DNA of 64,000 bases, taken from NCBI GenBank assembly GCA_001244265.2, contig CDLV01000009.1, forward strand, positions 248,001-312,000. Reading direction: 5' to 3'. This stretch comes from Microbotryum violaceum. Its lineage: Eukaryota. Each line of letters begins with the position of its first letter. Position 1 is the first letter of the stretch. Of this stretch, positions 14,228-57,868 are shown piece by piece. Made by a program: the position numbers and the translations under genes. The notes under the pieces were generated by a model, which saw nothing but the letters and a program-made list of their open reading frames with translations, had not been told where the DNA came from and made no database searches.

Positions 14228-17119
14228 ATGAGTAGGTTCCACATGAGCGTCTTGGCCCAACAACAGCAACGCCGATCTGACCCTGAATGCTCCATTGATC
14301 CCACTCCCCCACCGTTCCAGACGAAACACAGCAGCATCCGCCATCGGAGCACGACCTCGTTCGTCTCGCCACCGACCTGTCCGAAATGGCGAGCAGCAGT
14401 GGCATGTTGGGCCCGTTGCAGTTCAACCTCGACACCCTTCAAGATGACCAAGGCCAGCCTTTCCTCGTGCGTCTATTTCCTACCGATCTCTCGGAAGAGC
14501 TCTCGGAACGACTGCTCCAGATCTAGCGCAACCACGCTGACAGCTCGCGTACGACAGACTTCCAAATTCAACCAACAAGGCACTTCGCACAGGCAAGTCG
14601 AGCACCGCTTCATTCGAGCAAAGGACTCGCTCCGGAATCAAATGGAGGAGCCCCCCACAGGACCCCAATGCCACGCGACCAGGCCGGGTCAGGCGATGCG
14701 ACGAGACAGCAGAGAGCTTACCTTCGGCTCTGTCCTCCTGCGATCTGCAGATCCCCATGGACCAACCATTACATCCCTCCGATCCCGCGCAGCAGCGTCA
14801 GCGTGGCTCTTTCCGGTCGAACCAGGGCCCTCGAGGTGGCATTGAACCAAAGCGTCTCCGAGCTCCGAGATCAGTCAGTGCAACCAGCCGGAGACGAGCA
14901 TTAGCATGGGTTGGTAAAGCATACTCACTGACACGAAGGTCCACCACGATGTTGATGTAAAAGACTGTGGCCAGGTGGTATCTCGTCCGTCTATCTCCGC
15001 GAAGCCGAGGCCGCCGAATCCACCCATGGTGTCGCCCTCATTAAGAAAGGTCCGTTCGGGCCACCCTGGATTGGCTTGATCCGTTGCAACCCTAATGAGT
15101 TGATTTTCGTAGCAATTCTTTCGGCAGGTCGTGTTACGGCGTTCGATTCTAGTCAGTTAAACACCTTTACATGTCTCCGGTCCGTCAGGTCGAATGGCTG
15201 AAGCCGGCTCTTGACGTGCGCCACAGTTCACGAGTTCTCTATCTCGCATCTTCCCCACGCTCCCTCCGCATGTTATACGCTCAACTCGACCATCGAGGTC
15301 CACAAGGACAAAATCGGTGGATCGACGTCCAATTCGAGTCGATCCGAACTGCCCGTCGAAGGACCCTCGACTTCGTCGCAGCACTCGTCCCACGCCCGGA
15401 ACGTGACGCAATTGATTGAGCAGCAGGAGAAACAACTGCGCGAAACCTTGCAGGATATTCACCGATCCAGTGAGTCTGTTTCGATTCTTCGTGGTGCAAA
15501 ATGTCTGAGCTAACCGAGACTCGGTCTCTGATCCAGTCGCACCTCCCCAAGCTTCGACCACCGCCGATGACGATTACCAGAGGCATGCGTATCCGCCGGC
15601 TCCGAACGACGCGGAAGACGACTACGGCGGCTCGGAATCGCGGCATCTGCTCGACGAGTTTGGGATCGACGAAACCATGCCCCCGACGTCGGGTCGTGCT
15701 GCGGCGCAGAATGGACCCTTCACAAGGTGGCTGCGGCGCTTCCTGCAACTTCCGCTGAGGATTTTAGCGATCCCCATCGGGTTACTTGGTATCGCTTTTG
15801 GTGTCGTCGCTAGGCTCTTGCGTATCCGGCCTGGTCAAACGTCGTTGGGGCCTCGAAATCCGTTCGCGAGGGACGCTCGTAGTCTGCAGCGGATGGACCC
15901 TGTCGGATCGGCCGAACGTTTCGTGCGCTCGATCGAAGAGATGACGGGGGCGGTGCGGTGGTCCAGACGGCTGGGGGATGCCCAAGGATCGAGCTCGTCC
16001 GTCGTCGGCACGAGTTCGGGAGGTTCGTCGAGTCTCGAGCGACGACGGTCGGGTTCCAACTCGAGTGCGAGAAAGGCACTGCCAGATTTCTGGATCGGGT
16101 CGTACGAGTCGGCCCTGAAAAAAGCCAAAGATGACTTCCAGGTCTTGATGGTCGTCCTGACCTGCGATGAACACGAGGGTGACGAGTTATTTAAAAGACG
16201 GGTCCTCACCGATCCCGAATTGCTCAACGCGTTGGCGAGGGAAAAGATCCTCGTCTGGGGTGGGGACGTACGAGACGTCGATGCGTACCAAGCGTCCAAG
16301 GCGCTGCAGTTCTTCCGCTTGCCCTTTGTCGCTTTCGTCGCCTTGCAACCGCATTCGTCGAATCCGACCCTACCGGGCAGCGCGTCCATCTCATCCCCCA
16401 AGCTCTCAGTCGTGACCCGGCTGGAAGGATCCCCCAGTTCGACCCTCTCGGCCTCGAGTCTGCTCGCGCATCTTACGAACGTCGTCCTGCCCCGCGTCAA
16501 CCCCTTTCTGGCTCGTTTGAAGGCACAACATGCGACCCGGTTGGAGGAACGCCGTCTGCGCCAGGAGCAGGACCGCGCCTTTGCCATGTCGGCCCAGAAG
16601 GACGAGGAACGCGTGCTGCGCAAGCGCGCCGAGGAGAGTCAGCGACAACGCGACGTTGAGGAGCGCAAGCGCAAAGAGGAAGTGGCTTTACGAATCCGTG
16701 AGGGGTCGACAAAGTGGAGGGCGTGGAAGAGGGGTCAGTTGCAGGTCGAGGGCGAGCGAGAGGGGGTCAGGATCGGTGTACGATTGGGAGATGGGAGGAG
16801 AGTTGTGCGATCGTTCGCCAAGGATGCCAAAGTCGAAGACGTGTACGCGTACGCCGAATGCTCGTTCGAAACCGACGACGGAGAGCGTCGCGAGGCGCCT
16901 CCCGAGGATTACGAACACATTTACGAGTTCCAACTCGCCGCGCCGTTCCCGCGCTACGTGCTCGAGGTCGACGGGGACGCCGGCCAGAGGACCCTGGAGC
17001 AAATCCCTTGGTTGGAGAAGAACGTAAGTTTGATCGTCGAAGGGCTAGAGCAGAGGAGGATCTCACTGGGTAAAAGCGAGGCCAGTGATGACGAGGAGAT
17101 AGAAGAGGACGATGAATAG
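14228..17119 (+). CDS. UAS+UBX domain protein (Ubx2/FAF2-like), apparently with an N-terminal divergent F-actin capping protein beta-like domain (multi-exon)
   Basis: 3' exon: hydrophobic hairpin, LPDFWIGSYESALKKAKDD, LVWGGDVRD, RRLRQEQDRAF, VRLGDGRRVVRSF, APFPR. 5' exons: HRSPWTNHYIPP, GGISSVYL..GVALIKK, YTLNSTI, HARNVTQLIEQQEKQLRETLQDIH. In-frame intron 15470-15536 joins them. Confidence 0.8.
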
Positions 17120-37800: not shown

Positions 37801-40782
37801 TAATTTTTTTTTTTTGACTGGGGCTCATAAATTGCTATCCTTCGGGTTGGCTGGGACCGCTACAAAAAGAGCTAAAGGAGGTTATAAAGCAACGACGGCA
37901 AGCAGTTGGGTGAAAGTCAACCCCCTGCGCGCAAAGAGCGCTGCGCAAATCAAAACCCGCCGAGCACCTAACGCGGACTCCAACGGGCGGTGAGTACTGC
38001 TGCCGCTTCACGTCCCAAGAGCGGGAGCAAAGATACTCGAAAACCAGGCAAGAGCGCCTAGAGAAAGAAGGGGGAGAGTATACAGAAAGTCACGACTGGG
38101 GATACGGAGAACCAGGAATACTAAGACAGAGAGGAGGGGAACACACCCGAGGGGCCAAGGTAGGGGTCGAAGCCGGAGGTAGAGGTCCCCAGGGACTAAC
38201 AGACCGCAGCCAAGCCCCAGCTACTCGTCACCCCGACAGCGCCTGATGTCCTCCCTTGGCTGAATCTCGAGTGCTGGCTGTTGAGCCGTCGGGGCCGAGC
38301 GAAAAGCGATCCAATACAACAAAACGAGCCTCGCCTTGACGCGAGGATATTGACCAGAAACGAGCGACCTTCCTTCCCGAGCCATGCCGTAGATCTTGAC
38401 CAACGCGAACGAACGAACCATTCAACGGAATCCAACACACGGCTTAGGAGTAAAAGGAGAAGTGGCTGAAGCGTAGTCAACAACCGAGCAACAGGAACGA
38501 GAAGAGGAAGGGAAGGGAAAAAAGGGGGAAAGGAGAGGGAAAAACTTCACAAAGCCTCCAACGCAAAGATAATCGACCTGGCTTGCCGATCCATCCAAGA
38601 ACTAAAAAACCGCTACTGCGCAAAGTAGAGAGAGAGAGGGAGAGGTGCGCAGCCTTCCACTGCGCAACAAGTTCCAAGACAGTCAGCTTCTAAAAGAGGA
38701 GTCGACCTCCGAAAAAGAAGGGAGGAAAGGAGGGGAGGAAAATGGGAAGGAAGGACTTAACTCGGTCATCACACCTCCCAATCTCGAGCCCCAGGCACAA
38801 AACCCGCTCGAGAGAGAAAATCTCGCTCGAACGCTCTGAGTGCACTGGGGAGCGAGGGAGGGGCCACGACCTTGTCCAGCTCGAACCGCTGATGAACGCG
38901 CCAGCGGAGCAGGTGCAGCCGCTGGAAGCCGATCGCGCAGGCCAGCCGAACCCACATCCATCTCGAGGTCGTTCTCCCACGACCCCACAAAAGGGGAGCC
39001 CCATAGTCAGCTGCTCCGGAGTGAACGTCGACGGATCGACGTCGGTATCCTCGATGCCCAGCTTGTCGAACAGAATGCGAAGCACCCCACCCCAGAAGCT
39101 GGTCGAGTACGCGCACTCGAAGAAGTAGTGCGACACCGTCTCGATGACCGCTGCATCGTTGCCGCAGAACAGACACGTCGGCGAAGAGGCATGACCCTGA
39201 GTATGCTGCCTCTTGCGCGTCGGCGTCACGTCGTACATGAGCCGCCAGTGGGTGTCCTGCTCCACAGCAGACGCAAACCGGTCATGAAGCCATCTCCAGA
39301 AGCGCTTCCTATCGCTCTGAGAAGTCCCATCACGGAAACGCTTGACACGATCCTCCCTCCCTGGGAACCGAACCACGTTCACAAGCCGACGAAGCTTGCG
39401 AATAGTGAACGGTCGGGTGAGCCCAAAGAAGTTGAAGCACCGAGGACGGGGAGCCTCCTTGAGAGGTATCCGAGCAGGTCGCAACGCGGTCTTGGGCAGC
39501 AAGGCTTTCGCCTTGAGCAACTGACCCACGCGCGACCACACGTGCTCGTGCTGTAGGGCGGGTTCCTTAGAGTGCTGCCAGAACCCGCGTCGATGACCAA
39601 CCAGAGCCCAGCCCTTCCCTTCGTCCCTCCAGTACAGGTCCGCGATCTGCGCAAACTTCGCCACTGCGTCCGCATCGTCATATGCGTGCTTGGCACCTTC
39701 AGCATAGAGTGAAGGGAGGCGAGGCGGAAGCGAGAGCAATTCGGGGAGCGTAAGGAGTTCGGACTTGATGGTTGGAACTGTGACCCTGGCCGCTGCAACG
39801 ACTGCCCCCCAGCGCGTCGAGTCGCGATACAGCTTCTCGACCCGAGCCGTGCTGCTGAAGAACCCCCACGGACTGAAATCGCGGGTCGCAGCGACGAGGG
39901 ACCTCCAGCTCTCGCGAGCTAGGGGCGCCCAGATCGCCTCGTTCGAGCCCGCCACAGCATCCCAAAATCGAAGCGCCACCGAATGAACGATGTCGCCGAT
40001 TGAAATCAAGCCCAAGCCACCGTCCTCCCGAGCCTGGAACACGAAATCGCGAGCGACGGTATTTCGCCCTGCTCCTCCCCAAACAAAATCCGTAAGTGCT
40101 GTCTCCGCCGCCTTAATGAACCATTGAGGCGGTATGTCGAAGGACAGCACGTGGAGGACCGTCGAGATGATGTGAGCGTTGGCATAGAAGACCTTCCCAC
40201 TCGGCGAAAGTGTCCGGTCTCCAGCGGCGCGGGTCTTGGCCTTGATCCTGTCAAGAACATGGGTCCAAAACAGTTTCGAGTCACCGTGGCGAAAGAAGGC
40301 ATAGCCGCACCACTTGAAGCTCTCCCCTCCTGCACCGTTGGCAGCGCCGCGCAGTCTCGTCCCGAAGCCAGTTCGGTCCGAGTGGTAGCACCAGCGTCTT
40401 GTCCGTGTTGGTCTTCCCGTTGGTTGCCTCGTACCACGTCTGCGACAGCGTTTCCAGCTTCGACAATGCCGCCGGTGACTCCACTACCACCACAGCATCG
40501 TCGGCAAACGCCAGATGCGTAAGCTGCGCACGCGGCCCCCCTGGCCACACCTTAGTAGAAGTCAATGTGACCGTGCACCAGTCCGCCCGCCATGGCTCCC
40601 AATGTGTGGTAGAACCACCGCCGGTGTGACTTGGGTGCACCGTCATATTGACTTCTACTGTCCCCTTCAATTGATTAAACAACTGAAGCCAACCAACTTA
40701 ATCAATTGTTCAACTCGTGACCGATCTTAGTTTGCCTTGCGGCAGTGACAGACGCTACCAAATTGGAAAACAAAGGAAAGTT

Positions 40783-40854
40783 TGGCTGAACTGAGAATTG
40801 AACTCAGGTCCACTCTATTAATCAGAGTTGCTCTGACCGCTGAGCTACTCAACC
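40783..40854 (-). tRNA. tRNA-like cassette/pseudo-tRNA, copy 1 (apparent anticodon TTA in a non-canonical loop)
   Basis: GGTTGAG TA GCTC AGCGGTCA GAGC A ACTCT GATTAAT AGAGT GGAC CTGAG TTCAATT CTCAG TTCAGCC A folds into a full cloverleaf with A and B boxes; TTTT follows downstream. Confidence 0.75.
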
Positions 40855-41087
40855 AGTAGGAATAGATGAATATGACGGTGCACCCAAGTCACACCGGCGG
40901 TGGTTCTACCACACATTGGGAGCCATGGCGGGCGGACTGGTGCACGGTCACATTGACTTCTACTGTCCCCTTCAATTGATTAAACAACTGAAGCCAACCA
41001 ACTTAATCAATTGTTCAACTCGTGACCGATCTTAGTTTGCCTTGCGGCAGTGACAGACGCTACCAAATTGGAAAACAAAGGAAAGTT

Positions 41088-41159
41088 TGGCTGAACTGAG
41101 AATTGAACTCAGGTCCACTCTATTAATCAGAGTTGCTCTGACCGCTGAGCTACTCAACC
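41088..41159 (-). tRNA. tRNA-like cassette/pseudo-tRNA, copy 2
   Basis: Identical to 40783-40854, offset by 305 bp. Confidence 0.75.
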
Positions 41160-42399
41160 AGTAGGAATAGATGAATATGACGGTGCACCCAAGTCACACC
41201 GGCGGTGGTTCTACCACACATTGGGAGCCATGGCGGGCGGACTGGTGCACGGTCACATTGACTTCTACTACCTTCTGCAGGTCGAGCGCGATCCCGCGCC
41301 GAACGAGGGCGTCGAGGAAGGGCTGGAACGTGATGTTCCAAACCGGGCACGAGAGGGGATCCCCCTGACCGAGACCACACAGCAACCGCACCAACTCCGT
41401 GGGGAACCCATTGATGAGGTAGCGCACCCCAGAGTCTCGGGATCGTACAGAGCGCGCAGCAGGGAAATGAAACGCTCACCAAAGCCAAAGGCCTCGAAGA
41501 CGTCGAAGATCCATGCGTGATCGACCCGATCGTACGCGCTCTGCTGATCCAAGGACAAGAGGGCGCCCTCGGGGAAAACTTCAGTGCCTAGCGACTTGAG
41601 TTTTTCGAGAAGGAGAGTGAGATGACTTCCCGCGTCTGCTGAACGTCTTGATGGCATGAACCCGTGTTGCGCCGGCGGCAAAAGCTCGCCGAGCACCCCA
41701 TTGAGTCGCGCCACCAAGACCTTGCTGAGGACCTTGTAGGTTGTCTCGCGCAGTGTGATCGGTCGATATGCCCCAGTGATTTCAGATTGGCCCCCGGTTT
41801 GTTCTTGGGCAAAAGCCGCACCAGCCCCTCTGCCAAGGACGCCGTCATTTTGCCGCCCTCCCAAATCGAGTTGAACAAGTCCAACAGCTTGGGAGCGAAG
41901 TAGGTCGGCAGCGCCTTGAAAAGCTCATACGGAATGCCCGAAGGCCCCGGTGATCGCCCTGAATCCGTCTTCTTCAACGCCGCTTCGACCTCGGAAAGGT
42001 TGAAGGGCTCGTCAAGCGCCACTCTGGCTTGAAGGGGCAGCCGACGACCGAACGTAGGGTCCGAGCGGTCGTCATCGTAGCATTTCGCCGCGCGAATAGG
42101 GTCGAGCAGGGACCGACGTGGGTTCGTCGGGTCGCCACGAGCTGGGTCCGGCGTGAAGAGCGACTGTGCGTGCCGTGAAGCAATACCCAGCGCCTCCTGC
42201 ATGTCAACGGTCTCGGTGCCATCCACATCCTCCAGCGAGACGATGCTCGTCTGGCGACTCCGGCGGTTGAGACGCGTGCGAATGCTTGCCGATTGACCTT
42301 CCCTCGAGTCGACTGACGGCACATGCGCACGAATGCGCAGCCACTGAGCCTCCTTTACCGCCAACTGATCCAACTGCGACTTGGCGAGAGCATAAGCAA

Positions 42400-43178
42400 T
42401 TTTTTTTTTTTGACTGGGGCTCATAAATTGCAATCCTTCGGGTTGGCTGGGACCGCTACAAAAAGAGCTAAAGGAGGTTATAAAGCAACGACAGCAAGCA
42501 GTTGGGTGAAAGTCAAACCCCTGCGCGCAAACAGCGCTGCGCAGATCAAAGCCCGCCGAGCACCTAACGCGGACTCCAACGGGCGGTGAGTACTGCTGCC
42601 GCTTCACGTCCCAAGAGCGGGAGCAAAGATACTCGAAAACCAGGCAAGAGCGCCTAGAGAAAGAAGGGGGAGAGTATACAGAAAGTCACGACTGGGGATA
42701 CGGAGAACCAGGAATACTAAGACAGAGAGGAGGGGAACACACCCGAGGGGCCAAGGTAGGGGGTCGAAGCCGGAGGTAGAGGTCCCCAGGGACTAACAGG
42801 CCGCAGCCAAGCCCCAGCTACTCGTCACCCCGACAGCGCCTGATGTCCTCCCTTGGCTGAATCTCGAGTGCTGGCTGTTGAGCCGTCGGGGCCGAGAGAA
42901 AAGCGATCCAGTACAACGAAACGAGCCTCGCCTTGACGCGAGGATTTGACCAGAAACGAGCGACCTTCCTTCCCGAGCCATGCCGTAGATCTTGACCAAC
43001 GCGAACGAACGAACCATTCAACGGAATCCAACACACGGCTTAGGAGTAAAAGGAGAAGTGGCTGAAGCGTAGTCAACAACCGAGCAACAGGAACGAGAAG
43101 AGGAAGGGAAGGGAAAAAAGGGGGAAAGGAGAGGGAAAAACTTCACAAAGCCTCCAACGCAAAGACAATCGACCTGGC
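42400..43178 (-). mobile_element. 5'-truncated family A copy (3'UTR only, with poly(A) tail)
   Basis: 42412-43178 is a near-identical direct repeat of 37816-38582, preceded by a T-tract. Confidence 0.95.
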
Positions 43179-43182
43179 GCAA

Positions 43183-43340
43183 TTTTTTTTTTTTTTTGTA
43201 TGAAACTCATCGCTAATTTGCAAGACGAGAAAACCCCCTACGGAACTAAAGGAGATGCTACCCAGCATGCACGATGATGACCACAACCGCCGCTTGATGC
43301 GTTGTAACTAGCAGAACAGACCAACCCGATACATCCGAGT
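43183..43340 (-). mobile_element. Family B 3'-terminal stub (about 143 nt plus poly(A))
   Basis: 43198-43340 is nearly identical to 43350-43492; each copy is preceded by a T-tract. Confidence 0.95.
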
Positions 43341-44725
43341 TTTTTTTTTGTATGAAACTCATCGCTAATTTGCAACACGAGAAAACCCCCTACGGAACTA
43401 AAGGAGATGCTACCCAGCATGCACGATGATGACCACAACCGCCGCTTGATGCGTTGTAACTAGCAGAACAGACCAACCCGATACATCCGAGTTCAAGTCC
43501 CCCCACCCACGGTTGCTCCCTCCCAGAGACGAATGAAAGGAAGGTTGAAGATTATACACAAGGAATCGGGAAAAGATGGATGAGTCGTTGGTGATGGTAC
43601 ATGTGTTGTACAGGCGAATCCGATTATAGTCGTACAGTTGAACCTTCTTCGATCTTTTGACTTCAGCCCCCCCTGAGACCGCCATACTCCTTGAAGCCCC
43701 TTAATTCTTTGAGACGCGTCGAACAAGGCCTCCGATGGCACAAACATCCCGCTCAATCCAAATGATTCACGTGGTCCAAAGGGGGAATGTAACCCCTGCG
43801 ACCGCAGCAATCACATACCCCTTGTACCCGTCTGCGCTGGATCTCCACCGCGGATTCCAAACCCCTTTTCGGTTACCAAAGTCGGCCCCCCTCGCGACCG
43901 CACGACCCCAGATCACCCCCATTCCAATGACTGCAACTGCGAAACAGGCCTACTTCGCACAAAAACACACAATCCAGAGATTTCCGGGGAAAGTCACGGA
44001 GCATGTGACAGTCCATTGGACACGCCTCGGTCGGGTGCAGCGCGGGCGGGTGGCCGTCAACACCGGCGCGCGGCTGGAGACAAGGGCGGGGTATACCTTC
44101 CGCAGGGGCCTCGCTTCCCTGCGGCGTACTCCCAATCTCGGAACGCACACTCGAGTCCCCTTGTACGTGCAGGTGGTTCCCAATCACCGCAGATACTGGG
44201 GAAAGAAGGAGCATGAGGCCCACGACGGTGATGTCATTGGGTGGGACCTCGCTCGAGTGTGGATGTGTATGGCGGTTCGGTACCCGAGTCACCCGCCGCG
44301 GGGCCGCGACTCCGAGCGAGCAGCAAAGCAAGGAGAGGCGAGCCACGCAGGCAGTTTGTGCCGGCCTTGAACAGGAGATCACGGGGTCGCTCGACCGAAA
44401 GAGAAGACAGACCCGGCCCTTGAGAGGAGTGGAAAACTCACGGTATAGTCCAGGAGAGGGCCAAGGGGATACGTTTTCGCTGTGTGTCATCGTGATGTGG
44501 CAGAAGCTCGAACCAAGGGCGACAATGCCCGCCGGCGCAAAGAACCCGAGGCTCCTGGGGAGTACGGAAGCCTATGAGGAGGAATGGTAAAAAGAGCGAG
44601 AGAAAACAGGTTCAGTATTCTGGCGTGTTTGGGAGACATTTTGGAGATTGAGAAGGAGGGAAAAGGGACTTGTGATTTTTTGGGGGTTTGGTTTTTGCTT
44701 GGATAGGGAGGGAGGGACATCTACT

Positions 44726-47700
44726 TCATCGCGCCAATCTGAGCTCCAACCTCTCCTTCAGTCCCGCCATCTCCTTGTCCATGCTCGACATCGCTCTGGC
44801 GTGGCGATGGAGATCCCAGCGTCGGTTGCTGAGAGTGTCGAGCGCCAGCGCAATGAAGGCGCGGATTGGACGCTTTTTCGACGTCGGAAGGCGAGCGCGC
44901 AGTCGAGGGAGGCCGTGCTCGATCTGAAGTGCCGTGTAGTCGAGGTCGAGGATCGACACGACCCCCAGCGCGTCGCAGATAATGGACCTAGCTGCTTGCC
45001 AAAATTGAGAAGAGTCAGGGCAATCATGCCAAAAGTGAGTAAAGTCATCCTCCACCCCTGCCAGGCTGCATGCCTGCACAAGGCAGCAGGCCGAGTCGCC
45101 ATGCCGCTGCACAAACTGGCGCTTCCGCGTTGGCGTGAAGTGGTACGCCAGCTTGAAGTGCACCTCGCGCTCGCGGGCCGTGGCGGGCCCGGTGTGGAAC
45201 CACCCCAGAAGAGTCGCCTTTCTTTGGGTGTGGCGAGTGATCCAGGGCGTTGTGTGTCGTCGAAACGTCGATGGTTGATGACGCGTCGAAGTCGCGCAAT
45301 GGTGTAGGGTCTGTCCAAGCTCAACATTCTCCACTGATTAGCAAGCAAGGGGGCGGAGGGGAGGGGAAGTCTTTGATCAGGCATGCCGACCGGAGTCGCT
45401 CTGGGCAAGATGTGCTCGAGGGGACCGCTGGGCCGGGCTCCAGGTGCTCCAACGACACGAATGACGGGTGGTCGACGTGCGAGGACGGGAACAGGAGGCG
45501 GAAGCGGCGGGATGAAGCGATCGCCTGCGACCTGGATCCACGCCTGGACTTGATCGCGCTTCCATTGCCAAAGGTTGGACAGCTCCGAGCCGTCGCCTTG
45601 GGGATGCTTCTCAGGGGTCCAGGGCACCGTTGGAGCTGCGGGATATTGAGCTCGAGCATAGATGTCAGCGATGGTGCGTTCGAAACTGAAAAGCTTCGCC
45701 AAACGCTTATCCTGCTCCGAGAACGCCCGCGAGTCATGCAGACCCGGTTGGAGGGGGGAAAGAGAAAGAAGATTGGAGACCGAAAGTTTGGCAGGATCGA
45801 CGACGGCAGGGTAGCGTTCAGCGACCGAGAGCACCGCTCGCCAGCGGGGATGTAGCTCCCGGGGTGCGTCGGCGTTCCTCCACGTCCACAGATCCGCAGC
45901 AAAGTCAAAGGTCGGAAGCGCTCGCCGGATGGAACTCCGAGCCAGATCGCCCCAAATCGCAGTTGACCCGCCGGCCAGCACATCCCAGATCCGTACCGAG
46001 ACTGAATCCACCACATCCTGGATGCTCACGACGCTGAGACCGCCTCGCGCCCGTGCCGTGAAGACGACCGATTGCTTGTAGTCGCTGCGCCGCGGGCCTC
46101 CCTTCACAAAGTCAGCAAGCTTGCGCTCGATCGACTTGATCACGTCGGATGGCGGGATGTCGGCGGAGAGAGAGTGCAGCACCTTGGAGATGCCGTAGCG
46201 GTTAAGATAGAAAGCCCGGGTATGGTGCGTCATCCATCGGTCGCGCACCGATAGAATCACTCGATCAACCCTTCGCTCAAGATCATGGAATCCCAGCCTG
46301 TTGTTGCCGTCAGGCGCAAACTGGAGACCGATCCAGGGAAGAGACTCGTCCGGTGCCACGAACGACAGTTTGGACAAGTCCGCGCGATCCCACAACGTCG
46401 CGCCCAATGGCATCACCACAGTTTTGTCGGTGTTTAGACGTCCGTTCGTCGCGAGTCGCCAATCCCGAGCTAACGCCTCGAGCGAAGCAATAGCTTCCGG
46501 CCCAGCAACAGCGACGACGGCGTCATCCGCGAACGCCAAATTGGTGATGCATCGAGTCTGCGGACGATGAGCCAGCTCCGGAAGAGTGATAGTCAGCGCA
46601 ATGTTGCGTCGACTGAGAGAATCAAGGAAGGGTTGGAATACCACATCCCAGACAGAAGAAGAGAGAGGATCGCCCTGGCCAAGACCGCACAGGAGTCGCA
46701 CCGTCTCGGTGAGGAAACCGTTGACAATGTACCGCGCTGTGGACGTCTCGCCGTTGTAGAGCATCCGCAAGACGCGCTGGAAAGGTTCCGGCGCGCCGAG
46801 AGCCTCAAACACCGCAAAGACCCAATCGTGCTCGACCATGTCGTAAGCCGAGCTCTGATCCAGGGAGAGGAGCGCTGCTGTCGGGAACTCTGCCCCACGA
46901 CCCCTAATCTCATCGATCAGGAGCCGCAGATGCAAAGCCGCGTCCGCTGGTCTTCGCCCCTTGACGAACCCATGCTGTCCGGCCGGAAGAACATCGGGAG
47001 GATCCGGTTCAGACGAGCCACGTAGACCTTGGTGAAGATCTTGTAGTCGCATTCCCGCAAGGTGATCGGACGATACGATTTGAGGTCGCACCGCGCTGCA
47101 CCAGGTTTGTTGTGTTTGAACAAGAGGCGCACATTGGCCTGGCTCTGTTGTGGAGTAAGGGAGCCTCGAGTAATCAGCTCGTTGTAGGCTCGAGTCAAGA
47201 GAGGGGCCCAAAGCAGGGGGCAGGCTCGATACATCTCATAGGGGACCCCTGAAGGACCCGGAGATCGACCTTCGTGCGTGGTTCGAATCGCTGCGAGCAC
47301 CTCGGCCTCGCTGATGGGCTCGGCCAGAATGTCGACGTGCGAATTCGAGAAGCGCCGAAGGAAGCGAGCGTCGGAAAGCGGGTCGTCACAAGGTCTTGCT
47401 GATCTGATGGGTCCCAAGAGCTCATCCCGCATCGTCACGACCTGTTCCGGATCCTTCGCTTCGACAAGGTAGTGCTGCTGGAAATGAGAATGGGTGTGCT
47501 CGAGCGTGCGCTCCATGTCAGTGGTGAGCTCGCCATCAGCGAGCCGGATACTCTGAAACTTCACATCCCGGGACCGAGCAGCCAGTTTGGCATGTACCGG
47601 ACGACTGAGACGTTCCTCGGATGCAATCTCGGGCACGTGCGCCCTGATCCGGGACTGCCTTGCTCGCTCGTTCACAAGTTTGGTGAGAGCGTCGTGGGTG

Positions 47701-48764
47701 TTCGTCCAGTCGATAATATCGAAGGGGCTCAGCACCCGACGAGACTCAATGTCCTGCAGTCGAGATACCAGCATCATTTCGAGGGCGTTGCGCTCCCGAA
47801 ACAGACGCCGAGACAGCTCGAGAGCTTGGACCCGAGACTCCGAGAGTACGCGCTGAAGGTCCGCGACCGGATCCCCAGACGGTGCCTGCTCAAGGAGACG
47901 AGTGACGAACTCCTTAAACTCGGCGTGTCTGAAGGTCGACGAGTTGATGCGGGTCAGAAAATGAGCCGCCTGGGGAAGGCAGAGCTCCTCTTCGACCTCG
48001 GCACCACTTGCGCGCAGCCTAAATGTGACCGTAACCGGTCGATGATCCGACATGGATCGAGAGATATTGTACAGAGTAGAAGCAGAAACGACCCGTCGCT
48101 CGTGTCGCCGCTGCACCAGAACAAAGTCGATGCGCGCGCGCGAAATGAGCTGGCCGTCCTTGCTGAGATGTGGGCGCGTGGTCGCCGGCGACAGTGGGTG
48201 CATGAGCCGAATGGCATCCGTGTACGCCCCGTCGAGCCGAGACATAAGCACAGGCCAGTGGTGGGTGTTCGGGCGGTCCACCTGTTGCGCTCGATCCACC
48301 GCGGGAATAGGGCAGTCGTTCAGATCGCCCGCGATGAACCGAATGTGAGAGGAGACGGTCGCCCGAAAGTGAAGGGAGGTGAAGAAGAGGAGGCGCTCGG
48401 CGGGTTGAACCGGAGCGTAGATATTGTTGAGTTCGACGACGTCCGTCGAACCCCGCACATCGAAGGTGGTCACGAGTAAGCGCCCGCCAAGAGACTGACG
48501 CGTGCGACGATGACCACCGAGAAGAGGAGAAGAGCTTGGAATCAAAGTGAGGCAGTGTTGAGAAAAGTAGGCCTCGCCCTGGTGGGACTGGGCGTACTCG
48601 TGGCGTATGTGAGATTGTCGTGCTTTAGGAACATTATGTTCCTGGAGAAGGATAGCAGAAGGGGGAGGTGTGAGCGAAGTGAGATACGAAAGAAGCAGAC
48701 GACGTCGTTCAGGGGTATTGAAGCCCCTGTTGACGTTCCAGGTCATGATGATGAACTCAATCAT
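44726..48764 (-). CDS. Family B ORF2: APE endonuclease + reverse transcriptase + Cys motif (frameshifted as assembled)
   Basis: MTWNVNRG, LLQE, NIYAP, AGDLND, RIDFVL, SDHRPV; SPGPSG, YRPITL, QHGFVKGR, GLGQGDPLS, AFADD; CLVQAC..DDFTHFWHDC. Confidence 0.93.
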
Positions 48765-51478: not shown

Positions 51479-54400
51479 TCAGAACCCCGAAGCCGAAGAG
51501 CGCGAGCCACACCGAGTCGACGCCAAATCGCGAGATGGTCCATGATCCGCAACGGTGAACCTGTAACAAATGAAAGATGAAAGCGATCTATTTAGTGTAC
51601 AGTAGGAGAAAATAATGTCACGAGAATTTGGTGTGTGTGTGTGGTGGTGGTGGGGGGAAAGTCGAACCCAGCCTCTACTGCCCTCTCCTCCCCAAGCTCC
51701 TCCCGCCCTCAGCTTCAACCTCTCCTCCAAGATGATCCTCCTCCTCACAACACCCTCCATCTTCGTCCCCCACTTCTGCATCCCCCACCTCCAGCTGCTG
51801 ATCATCTCCAAGACCAGCCCGGTGAATATTTCGATCGTCCTCCCCGCTCCTTCTTGATCGCGTAGACTGGCCTTGAGCTTCGGAAGTCCGAACATGCGTT
51901 GAACAGCCGTGTAATGCGTGTTGTCGATCGTGTCGAGCCCCAGTGCGTCGCAGAGCACGCTCCTTGCCGCGATCCAAACGTTCCCAGAGTCAACGCAGTC
52001 GAAAAAGTAGTGGTCGGTGTCGTCCACCGGCGCCTCGCAGACGAGGCACGCGGGAGAAGTGTCGTGATTCTGTTGGTGTTGCAGCTTGCGCGTCGGGGTG
52101 AAGCGGAGAATCAGCTTGAACCAAACTTCCCTCTCCCTCGCCGTCAGTGCCTTCGAGTTGACCGCCTTCCAAAAGCTCCTGAGGTCGTCCGGCTGCGGTG
52201 GTCCCTTGAGCCCGAGCGTGTTGGTAAAGGCCTTCGCGTTCAGGACCCGGCGGATGCGACGGATGGTGTACGGTCGAGCCATGTTCAGCAGCTTGTACTG
52301 GCTCGCCTGCTGTGGAAGCACCGGGTCCGGAAGGCGCTGCTCCATTGCGAAGCGGGCCACGGGCTTGGGAGAATCGCCTCGAGCGGTGCGCTGGTGCCGA
52401 TCCGGGGAGGCACGTTGAGCCGTCCTGCCGCCACCGCCACCGCCAAGGGCGTGTTCTTGTGTCGATCGACAGTAAACCGGTACCAGGCCGCGATTGCCAG
52501 TCGCTGCGGGAGCCCGCGTCGATCGTACTCGCTGTTGTCGCCGAGCACATCCGCCGGCGGCGTCCAAAGGTGAAACCCCCCACCCGCATACAACTCGCGC
52601 CGGTAGAGATCCGCCACCTTCGGGTAGCCCTGAAGACGAAGGTAGTCAGGTATATGAACCGCGTCGATGGTCTGTCTCCCTCTGATGGGGGTGTGGAGGC
52701 TGCCGAGCAAGGTGGGAAGCGCGAGCAGGTTCGCGGTGGTCAAGGTCCTCGGGTTGACCTGCGCGTCTTGCTGTTTCGGAACCCCAATGCTGCTCGCCAT
52801 CGGGGATGGAGGTCGCTGGGGATGGGAGTGGATGGATGTGGCCAGAGATCGGTGGCCAGGTCGAGGTCGGACTGAGCTCGCTGGAGTGCCACGCGCGCAA
52901 GTCCTTGCCAGATCGCGCCCGAACCGCCGAGAAGAACGTCCCAGATCCGTGCCGCAACCGCGTCCACGACGTCCTGCATCCTGATCACCCCGAGTCCCCC
53001 TTGAGCTTGGCTGTGAACACGATATCTCTGCCGTAGCTGGTCCTGCCCTTGCCCCACGGACGAAATCGACGAGCATGTCATCGAGCTTCTTGACGACTTC
53101 GGGCGGCGGGATGTCGGCTGCAAGGAAGTGCAGGATCTTGGGGATGGCGTACCGATTGACGTAAAAGGCACGGGTGTGGTGTGTGAGCCAGCGATGCTGA
53201 ACCCCTTCCAGCGTCGCCTCGAGGCGTTCGATGAGATTCGCGTAGGCGAGTTCGGTGTCGCCGCTCGGGTCGAAGGGGAGGCCGATCCACTCGAGCGACT
53301 CGCCTGCGGCCTTGACGACGAGCGGGCGTTGCCCGGGTCCCAGCGGCGTCCGATCGGTAGGACGACCGTCTTGTCCGTGTTGAGCCGGCCATTCGTTGCA
53401 TGCCTCCAGTCGAGCGCCAGGTCATCGAGCAAGTTGAGTGACCCCAAGCCCGCGACGGCGACGACAACGTCATCGGCAAAAGCAAGCGATGTAATGGCGC
53501 GGCTCTGTGGGTACGGATGAAGTGCAGGTATGGAGAGATTCAGCGCGATGTTTCGACGGTGTAGAGCATCCAGAAACGGCTGAAACACGATGTCCCAGAC
53601 CGACGACGACGCCGGGTCCCCTTGGCCGAGCCCACACGTCAGTCGTACCGGCGCCGTCAAGAACCCATTGATGATGTAGCGGGCCGAGGTCGAGTCACCC
53701 GAGTAGAGCATCCTCAGCACGCGAAGAAAGGTGGCAGGAGCGCCCAGAGCGTCAAAGATGGCAAAGATCCAGTCATGCTCGACGAGGTCGTAGGCGGACG
53801 ATTGGTCAAGAGATAAGAGTGCGGCCGCGGGGAACTCGGTCCTGCGCGCGCCAACTTCCTCGATCAGGAGACGAAGGTGTAGTGCAGCGTCAGCCGATCG
53901 GCGGTCCTTGACGAATCCGTGCTGCTGCGGCGGGAGGAGATCCGGTAGAATTTGGTTCAAACGGGCGACATAGACCTTGGTAAAGATCTTGTAATCGCAC
54001 TCGCGCAGGGTGATCGGCCGGTACGCCGAAAGTTCGGCGCGATCAGCATTCTTCTTGTGTCGCTTGAAGATGAGGCGCACGAGTCCTTGGCCCTGCTTGG
54101 GAGAGAGTGAGCCTCGCTCTATCATCGCGTTGTAGGCCTTGGTCAGCACCTTGGCCCACGCCTTGGGTGCGGTCTGGTAGAGTTCGTAGGGCACGCCCGA
54201 CGGTCCCGGCGATCGCCCCGGGTGCGTCGTCCCGATCGCGGCCACGACCTCGTCCTCGGTGATTGGTCGCTGGAGTAAGTCGATCTGCGATTCCGAGAGT
54301 CGGCGCAGAAAGAGAGGATCCGAGCGCGGGTCGTCGCAAGTCCGCGCCGCCCTGATCGGCGCGAGGAATTCGTCCCGAAGTCGGTCGACGCGGTCCGGGT

Positions 54401-55505
54401 CACGAGGCTCGATGCGGTAGAGGCGCTGGATATGCGCCTGCGCGTGGTCAAGAGCGACATCAATGTCATGCGTTAGCTCTCCGTTGCTCAAGCGCAGTGC
54501 TGTGATCTTGGAGTCCGAGTTTCGCGCCGCGAGCTTGGCGTGGACCGGCCGCGACAGTCGTTCCTCGGAGGCGATCTCGGGTACGTGGGCTCGGATCCGG
54601 AGTAGGCGCGCGCGCGCCTCCTCGCCCGCTTGAGTTCCTCGGACGTCCTTGTCCATTCTGCCGTTTCCGCCTCCCCCCATTCCGGTATCGCCTCCAGATC
54701 CTGCACCCTCCCCACCAAATACTCCATCCGTTCCGTCCGCTCCCGATGCAACCTCCTCGCCATCTCCCCACCCCTATCCCTGCACGCCTTCAGAATGACC
54801 TCGAGCTCCCCCACCGGTTCCTCCCCGCTTGCCCCTTCCAACCATCCTTCCATCATCCGCTGGAATTCCACCGTCTTAAAGGTTGTGGTGTTGATTCGAT
54901 GTAGTTGGTTTGATGTGGTAGGTAGGCTGAGCTGTGGAGGGTCGCATCAGGATCGTCTGAGAGAGCCAGCACAATCAAGACCGGTCGGTGATCGGAAAGC
55001 TCCTTGGGATAGTCGTAGATCGTCGAGGCCTGATCGAGTCTTTTTTGGTGTGTCCGTTGCAGGAGAAAGTAGTCAAGCCGGGAGAAGGAGTTGGGTCGCT
55101 TGCGATTGGGATTAGGTCGAGTGAAGGATGGGGTGATGGGGTGTTTGTAGCGGATGCAGTCCGTGTAGGCCGAGTCGAGCTTGCCGATCAGGATTGGCCA
55201 GTGGTGGCCGCGCCGACTTTGGTTCCGCCGATCGACTTCTGGGCGCGGGCAGTCGTTGAGATCACCGCCAAGGAGTCGGAGGTGGGATTTCTGTGTTTTG
55301 TGAAATAAGAGTTTGTCAAAGAATTTCGCTCGTTGCTTTGGGTCAACGGCGCGCGTAAACGTTGTTGATTTCTAGAATTTTGATGTCGCCCCGCAGACGA
55401 AAGGACGTGACGAGGAGCCGGCCGTCGAGTGCCGAGTGGGTGCGCAAGAGCTCGACGTCGATCAGGGGGAGTCAGCCGGAATTAGAGTCAGACAATGTTG
55501 GTTGA
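51479..55505 (-). pseudogene. Family C ORF2 (APE lacking its N-terminus, RT, zinc motif), frameshifted
   Basis: [84 protein letters not shown]. Confidence 0.9.
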
Positions 55506-57796: not shown

Positions 57797-57868
57797 TCCT
57801 TCGTGGGACAACGGTTAGCCTTTCGCGTTTTCACCGCGGCGATCCGGGTTCGATTCCCGGCGGGGGAG
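57797..57868 (+). tRNA. tRNA-Glu(TTC)
   Basis: TCCTTCG..TCGCG TTTTCAC CGCGG..CCGGG TTCGATT CCCGG CGGGGGA G cloverleaf, 72 nt, Glu-type TCC/GGAG ends; one D-stem mismatch. Confidence 0.9.

Follow-up and report, generated by a model that had tools for sequence, protein, structure and literature searches.

A probable MITE-like transposon of Microbotryum carrying a duplicated tRNA-like Pol III cassette between self-contained terminal modules

In a 64-kb stretch of DNA from Microbotryum lychnidis-dioicae (contig CDLV01000009.1, positions 248,001 to 312,000; hereafter the window), a 716-bp element interrupts the reverse transcriptase (RT) gene of a long interspersed nuclear element (LINE) and contains two copies of a complete tRNA-like gene. 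Its features are probably best accounted for by the young insertion of a non-autonomous, cut-and-paste transposon with terminal inverted repeats (TIRs), resembling MITEs (miniature inverted-repeat transposable elements) and belonging to the Microbotryum lineage, in which the tRNA-derived RNA polymerase III (Pol III) cassette would be a dispensable passenger. Mobilization of such a cassette by a DNA transposon, as the original prediction had it, is supported by the TIRs, the target-site duplication (TSD), the in-frame break of the LINE RT, and three related copies in a sister species, one of which keeps part of the cassette beside its terminal module. The element and its insertion site are composed as follows, P designating the terminal module and P1 to P3 its copies.

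40554-41269: whole element, 716 bp
40549-40553, no strand: left TSD, ACCTT
40554-40659, plus strand: P1, left TIR, 106 nt, with inverted ends 40554-40579 and 40634-40659
40660-40782, minus strand: trailer 1, flanking tRNA-like gene 1 on its 3' side and containing an 11-bp inverted repeat, CAATTGATTAA...TTAATCAATTG, and, at 40770-40767, a run of four T (T4)
40783-40854, minus strand: tRNA-like gene 1, 72 nt, with cloverleaf, A and B boxes and an anticodon loop GAUUAAU centred on UUA
40855-40964, minus strand: P2, inverted P copy, 110 nt, its inner end adjoining the 5' end of the tRNA-like gene
40965-41087, minus strand: trailer 2, of the same sequence as trailer 1, with its T4 run at 41075-41072
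41088-41159, minus strand: tRNA-like gene 2, identical to gene 1
41160-41269, minus strand: P3, inverted P copy and right TIR, 110 nt
41270-41274, no strand: right TSD, ACCTT
38690-42685, minus strand: host, a degenerate APE-type LINE whose RT, with a zf-RVT domain, is broken between ...ALDLQKV and WPGGPRAQLTHLAFADD

Removal of 721 bp, that is, of the element together with one ACCTT, restores the reading frame of the RT. Upon this excision, tblastn with each of the two paralogous RTs of the window (2/2) returns one in-frame alignment, which reads ...ALDLQ-KVWPGGPRAQ-LTHLAFADD... across the restored junction, whereas with the element left in place the same RT alignment splits into two pieces lying in different frames. 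The ACCTT flanks, the perfect inverted arms and the restored frame together confirm the proposal of a TIR element at 40554-41269, with its TSD, inserted in an RT gene. A TA duplication, of the Tc1/mariner type, was considered and discarded, because taking out the corresponding 716 bp would put the RT out of frame and would give no account of the 5-bp repeat. On the host side, the zf-RVT domain is found on the LINE open reading frame (ORF) at 38690-40483, and the window paralogs carry RVT_1 and Exo_endo_phos. The RT alignment of the host LINE also shifts frame at two further points besides the insertion, indicating that this LINE copy is degenerate and that it was probably dead before the element arrived.

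The internal organization corresponds to a P - core - P' - core - P' layout with a period of 305 bp, which agrees with the succession of TIRs and cores around a 305-bp repeat put forward in the original prediction and refines it, the TIR being itself a module (P, 106-110 nt) whose two ends are inverted repeats of 26 nt. On the minus strand, the succession is P, tRNA-like gene, trailer, P, tRNA-like gene, trailer and inverted P, or 106 + 305 + 305 bp. Inverted arms at 40553-40649 and 41174-41270 (97 nt, 100% identity) make up the TIRs at both element ends, a second inverted pair relates 40554-40649 to 40869-40964 (96 nt, 100%), and the direct repeat, with its 305-bp period, relates 40634-40933 to 40939-41238. 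All three P copies are identical over 96/96 nt and both cores are identical. Between the 305-bp units there are only two differences in 305 positions (40641 and 40646), and since both are positions that separate the inner from the outer end of P, the duplication itself is free of mutations. This identity of the internal copies suggests that the element is young, having been inserted or duplicated recently.

As DNA, module P forms a nearly perfect hairpin (-30.6 kcal/mol, z = -6.8). The inner ends of P2 and P3 show CATCTATTC where P1 has GACTT, with the terminal CTACT being kept, and no nucleotide separates either module from the beginning of the tRNA-like gene next to it. Two of the 26-nt P ends, at 40634-40659 and 40939-40964, stand in direct orientation, 305 bp apart, and share 24 of their 26 nucleotides. 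Regarding base composition, G+C amounts to 46% in the cassette, 42% in the trailer and 56% in P, compared with 58% for the window. In the two trailers (40669-40709 and 40974-41014), the CAATTGATTAA...TTAATCAATTG inverted repeat is perfect over its 11 bp and encloses a 19-nt loop, and the RNA of the whole core folds better than 200/200 shuffled versions (z = -3.4).

No transposase gene is present, stop codons interrupting all six frames of the element and the longest internal ORF being of 63 aa; its sole match among 1.84 billion representatives, the repeat protein P0121 with 22% identity, was rejected as spurious. The 18-nt terminal motif occurs four times in the window, always within the element, compared with 0.03 occurrences expected, and when up to three mismatches are allowed all 4 matches in the window still fall inside the element. 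When the element was compared with the 64-kb window by blastn-short (38 rows), only matches of 11-13 nt with E values of at least 0.56 were found beyond its limits.

The tRNA-like nature of the core was evaluated with ARAGORN and Rfam. ARAGORN reports three genes in the window. Two, at 40782-40855 and 41087-41160 of the minus strand, are called 'tRNA-Stop (tta)', and the remaining one is a genuine tRNA-Glu(ttc) at 57797-57868 (plus strand), with a terminator of nine T (T9) immediately after it, which provides a reference for Pol III termination in this genome. Exactly three matches are also obtained in the window at the gathering threshold of Rfam, all to RF00005 (cut-off of 29 bits), scoring 49.9 and 49.9 bits for the cassettes (E = 1.1e-7) and 46.5 bits for the tRNA-Glu. 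Scanning 40450-41370 for other RNA families with a laxer E-value gave six matches, two of them tRNA; the other four were rejected as chance, being far below threshold (for instance, Plastid-ycf2 with 19.8 bits vs. a cut-off of 65.7, and TtnuCD24 with 17.8 vs. 75). In the cloverleaf, 21/21 stem pairs are Watson-Crick or G-U, and its energy is -22.0 kcal/mol, compared with -23.8 for the minimum-energy fold. The A box, TAGCTCAGCGGT, is intact, and the B-box invariants G53, T54, T55, C56, A57, A58 and C61 are all present in the Rfam alignment. On the minus strand, each tRNA-like gene is followed, at a distance of 12 nt, by a T4 run, and these are the sole runs of four or more T on either strand of 40300-41300. 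The complete cloverleaf, A and B boxes and T4 run attributed to each core are thus confirmed.

The anticodon loop, formed by G32, A33, U34, U35, A36, A37 and U38, is centred on UUA and lacks U33, as had been read from the letters GATTAAT and as the tta assignment of ARAGORN and the GAUUAAU loop of the cloverleaf corroborate. U33 is nearly invariant in elongator tRNAs. Moreover, pairing of G32 with U38 is possible and would produce a 6-bp stem closing a 5-nt loop, with a calculated energy of -22.8 kcal/mol vs. -22.0 for the form with a 7-nt loop. With its promoter and cloverleaf kept, the cassette could recruit TFIIIC and Pol III, while the defective anticodon loop argues that it is not a decoder. 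No complement of the 3' end of the tRNA-like gene (with or without CCA, up to two mismatches), as a primer-binding site would present, was found in the window outside the element, and blastn-short detected no stand-alone copy of the core within the same 64 kb.

The assignment of the window to Microbotryum lychnidis-dioicae agrees with its 480-aa ORF at 15677-17119, which matches MVLG_05925 of strain p1A1 Lamole of this species with 100% identity. Other copies of the element were sought by protein searches with the translations of P, that is, among gene models that read through such copies. Three gene models of the sister species M. silenes-dioicae bearing P were retrieved (one of two candidates in one search and two of five in the other), located on two contigs and in different host genes (locus tags BQ5605_C036g11556, BQ5605_C036g11543 and BQ5605_C025g10075). 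The first, P0122, is a Copia polyprotein (RVT_2, rve) with an insert placed between HIGIHF and HFIRDH. This insert starts with NWKTKESLAELRIEL, identical at 15/15 residues to the translation of window positions 40761-40805, which take in the T-run together with the final 25 nt of the tRNA-like gene, and continues with SHTGGGSTTHWEPWRADWC, corresponding to P, and then with GLVHGHIDFYY, corresponding to the P terminus. Dropping a single 81-nt GT..AG interval (40808-40888) from the window yields the 34-aa peptide of P0122 exactly, and this interval contains the remainder of the tRNA-like gene together with the inner end of P and two stop codons. Most probably, an intact cassette in P0122 was spliced out by the gene caller. 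At residues 1726-1741 of the same model, RADWC is followed by GLVHGH, which represents some 10 extra nt relative to the window P and an apparent GGACTGGTGC duplication.

The second model, P0124, contains a solo P of ~103 nt, made up of the first 72 nt of P and a 31-nt outer terminus, with no core. Its flanks read YI and YI, and in P0122 HF precedes the insert, whose end reads YF and is followed by HF; both correspond exactly to what a 5-bp duplication would produce at the protein level in those frames (2/2 of the copies with both flanks readable). The third model, P0123, reads inward from the P terminus, its P differing by at least 4 nt changes in 102 (a minimum count) and being conserved to at least 96%. 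A later stretch of P0123, in the region of the 3' flank, is closer to the element than shuffled sequences are (p = 0.001), although only after a gap set post hoc by tblastn. Among the three other copies, the cassette is therefore seen in part in one, is missing from another, and is unclear in P0123. The original prediction would have been refuted by copies without the cassette, and here the outcome is divided, P0124 lacking the core and P0123 having a 5' half that is not demonstrably conserved, while P0122 keeps part of the cassette.

Considering that (i) a solo P exists (P0124) and (ii) P0123 has conserved ends but not a demonstrably conserved interior, the cassette is best regarded as cargo, and the presence of related copies without a demonstrable cassette points to its being dispensable for mobility. 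The mobile handle would then be P, of ~106 nt, with termini AGTAG...CTACT and inverted ends of 26-31 nt, this module being the unit that a transposase would recognise and also able to exist alone as a miniature element of ~103 nt. The basic element would have 411 bp, with two inverted P modules around a 195-nt passenger composed of the tRNA-derived Pol III gene and its 3' flank. The 305-bp unit of passenger plus P would subsequently have been duplicated in tandem, most likely by unequal exchange or slippage between the directly oriented 26-nt P ends lying 305 bp apart. A transposase acting in trans would have made a 5-bp staggered cut in the LINE RT gene, where the element was inserted. The tRNA-like gene, with its internal promoter and cloverleaf retained, may still recruit TFIIIC and Pol III and give rise to a tRNA-shaped small RNA, an outcome whose chances appear evenly balanced.

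Several points weigh against this explanation. Within the 64-kb window, neither an autonomous element or transposase with these TIRs nor a second copy was found. The AG...CT termini in combination with a 5-bp duplication match no superfamily that could be confirmed. Should the T that precedes AGTAG and the A that follows CTACT be part of the TIR, as could be the case, the duplication itself would amount to 3 bp (CCT), and the identical 305-bp tandem duplication could be an artefact of the assembly. The T4 run behind the cassette appears weak beside the T9 run behind the genuine tRNA-Glu of the window. The copies of the sister species are known from translated gene models alone, not from DNA. 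In P0123, the 14 codons that follow P ought to hold the 5' half of the tRNA-like gene, yet they require a minimum of 19 changes in 42 nt and are no closer to it than shuffled controls (p = 0.16). Finally, the left edge of the P0122 insert falls within the trailer rather than at a P end, and neither this nor the ~10-nt difference near its P terminus is accounted for by the explanation; a rearrangement or the splicing of the gene model could be the cause of both oddities.

The best-surviving alternative, which we nonetheless consider unlikely, is that the cassette is the selected, functional part of the element, serving as a portable TFIIIC/Pol III site with chromatin-barrier or insulator activity, or giving rise to a tRNA-shaped or hairpin RNA of benefit to the element or to its host. 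The original prediction had proposed, besides a TFIIIC-bound insulator, a decoy landing pad for tRNA-targeting retroelements, both of them candidate roles. The A box, the B-box invariants and the 21/21 pairs are intact in spite of the element-wide depletion of TCG described below, and in P0122 the T-run and T-arm region is unchanged at 15/15 residues at the amino-acid level. Read-through beyond the weak T4 would yield an RNA with 96-nt perfect inverted P arms, and the core machinery of RNA interference (RNAi) is reported in this fungus (PMC4469406). Against this alternative, the solo P of P0124 has an apparent TSD of its own, and the conservation of P in P0123, of at least 96%, does not demonstrably extend to the interior beside it. 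Likewise unlikely, and slightly less probable still, is its broader form, in which miniature DNA transposons with the cassette as selected cargo would spread TFIIIC/Pol III sites through the Microbotryum genome, either as chromatin barriers or through read-through hairpin RNAs feeding RNAi.

Quite improbable is that the core is a tRNA-derived short interspersed nuclear element (SINE) that landed in a pre-existing fold-back MITE, instead of reaching it by capture along with its genomic flank. The core combines a tRNA-like head, which has A and B boxes, with a body of ~120 nt, and the resulting 195 nt are a size proper to SINEs; moreover, tRNA-like structure in repeats is conventionally read as SINE (PMC2817418). 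Nevertheless, the core has neither an A-rich or simple-repeat tail nor flanking direct repeats, it abuts P on both sides with 0 nt between them, and no free copy of it occurs in the window. The published annotation of transposable elements (TEs) of this genome lists 0 SINE copies and 39 MITE copies (PMC4469406, Table 2).

That the cassettes are working ochre-suppressor tRNA genes, their UUA reading UAA and the transposon spreading them, was already the less favoured suggestion of the original prediction and now appears very unlikely. The tta anticodon given by ARAGORN, the Rfam score above that of the genuine tRNA-Glu (49.9 vs. 46.5 bits) and the downstream T4 run speak for it. Against it stand A33 in the place of the near-invariant U33, the G32-U38 pair with its slightly more stable 5-nt loop, and a terminator that may be weak, being only a T4 run where the real tRNA gene has T9; in addition, harm would be expected from suppressors in multiple copies, members of the family can do without the cassette, and no isotype can be assigned. 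Hardly credible either is a local rearrangement or assembly artefact within the LINE, with no mobility involved, for which the single copy in the window and the 100% identity of the internal repeats, as in collapsed or mis-joined reads, might be invoked, yet which is contradicted by the precise flanks with their 5-bp duplication, the restored frame and the related sequences at three sites of another species in unrelated host genes.

A trace of the past of the element is provided by its base composition. The 411-bp unit at 40554-40964 is depleted in TCG and enriched in TTG, with a TCG:TTG ratio of 2:24 vs. 32:47 for VCG:VTG (Fisher p = 0.0015), whereas the LINE flanks (40000-40553 and 41270-41800) exhibit no such bias (55:37 vs. 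149:102). TpCpG is a hypermutation target reported for repeats of this fungus (PMC3318451), and the depletion fits such hypermutation having acted on the MITE lineage and not on this LINE copy. The T-loop of the cassette, TTCAATT, compared with TTCGATT in the tRNA-Glu of the window, contains one such TpCpG site. The idea that reverting TTG/CAA would render the tRNA more canonical was abandoned, since the U4-A68 pair would be lost on reversion of the TTG at positions 3-5, and only the signal at the level of composition is therefore kept.

The surroundings of the element are rich in retroelements. Direct repeats totalling ~780 bp (37802-38582 and 42398-43178; three blocks with 98-100% identity, 4596 bp apart) flank the body of the host LINE and could represent either a pair of neighbouring LINE copies with a common 5' region or a terminal-repeat structure. 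Just past the LINE 5' region, a 152-bp unit is tandemly duplicated with 99% identity (43188-43491). Further APE-type LINE copies lie at 44758-48764 and 51479-54680 (Exo_endo_phos, RVT_1, zf-RVT), the region being a retroelement nest.

When compared with known systems, the element is closest in its general features to MITEs and other non-autonomous TIR transposons, including fold-back-like ones, with which it shares a small size, the absence of coding capacity, perfect TIRs, a short fixed TSD, an internally deleted miniature derivative (the solo P of ~103 nt) and a transposase presumably provided in trans. It differs from them in having a complete tRNA-like Pol III gene, a TIR that is a self-contained module and an internal 305-bp tandem duplication. 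In gene capture of the Pack-MULE type and in composite transposons of the bacterial style, host-derived DNA placed between transposon ends moves along with them, as here, but the cargo in this case is a Pol III gene and not a fragment of a protein gene. The ends of the element being whole miniature elements, its architecture is composite-like, which is unusual in eukaryotes. Integrase-type elements typically have TG...CA ends.

With tRNA-derived SINEs the element has in common a tRNA-related sequence with A and B boxes, amplification within a repeat and the loss of a normal anticodon loop. However, SINEs are spread by LINE-mediated retroposition, end in a 3' tail, lack TIRs and produce duplications that vary in length, whereas the element has TIRs, a short fixed duplication and no tail. 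Dada is also a DNA transposon associated with tRNA genes, inside which, as well as inside snRNA genes, it inserts, lacking TIRs and generating duplications of 6-7 bp (PMC3706591). Membership in Dada was rejected, the element having 97-nt TIRs and a 5-bp TSD, carrying an entire tRNA-like gene and occupying sites in a LINE RT and in a Copia RNase H region. The TSD lengths given for Ginger2 (4-5 bp) and MuDR (4-10 bp) in PMC10045372 would make a 5-bp TSD compatible with Ginger2/TDD and other superfamilies with 4-5-bp TSDs, from which the element is set apart by its AG...CT termini and by having no known transposase. The literature searched, with Repbase Reports and most subscription journals lying outside its scope, yielded no account, for Microbotryum or any other organism, of a tRNA-like gene carried by a TIR element. 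No TE-related passage was found in the 12 of 24 supplementary files of PMC4469406 searched, and the TE consensus list of the genome may already contain the family.

Repeats derived from tRNA are usually the signature of SINEs and retroposition, while here a cut-and-paste element would move a complete, tRNA-shaped Pol III gene. Annotation pipelines would either call two extra 'suppressor tRNA' genes at such a locus or misfile the repeat as a SINE. The pair formed by the solo P and the composite element would be a rare example, among eukaryotes, of DNA being mobilised by the two miniature elements on either side of it. If the family proved numerous, TFIIIC-binding sites and sources of inverted-repeat RNA could be scattered genome-wide, and if the cassette were, against our expectation, selected cargo, the family would constitute a DNA-transposon counterpart of the role played by SINEs in animals. 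Microbotryum is a model for sex-chromosome-like degeneration and for the accumulation of TEs, and the identical internal copies of this element suggest that the transposase responsible for its movement has recently been active.

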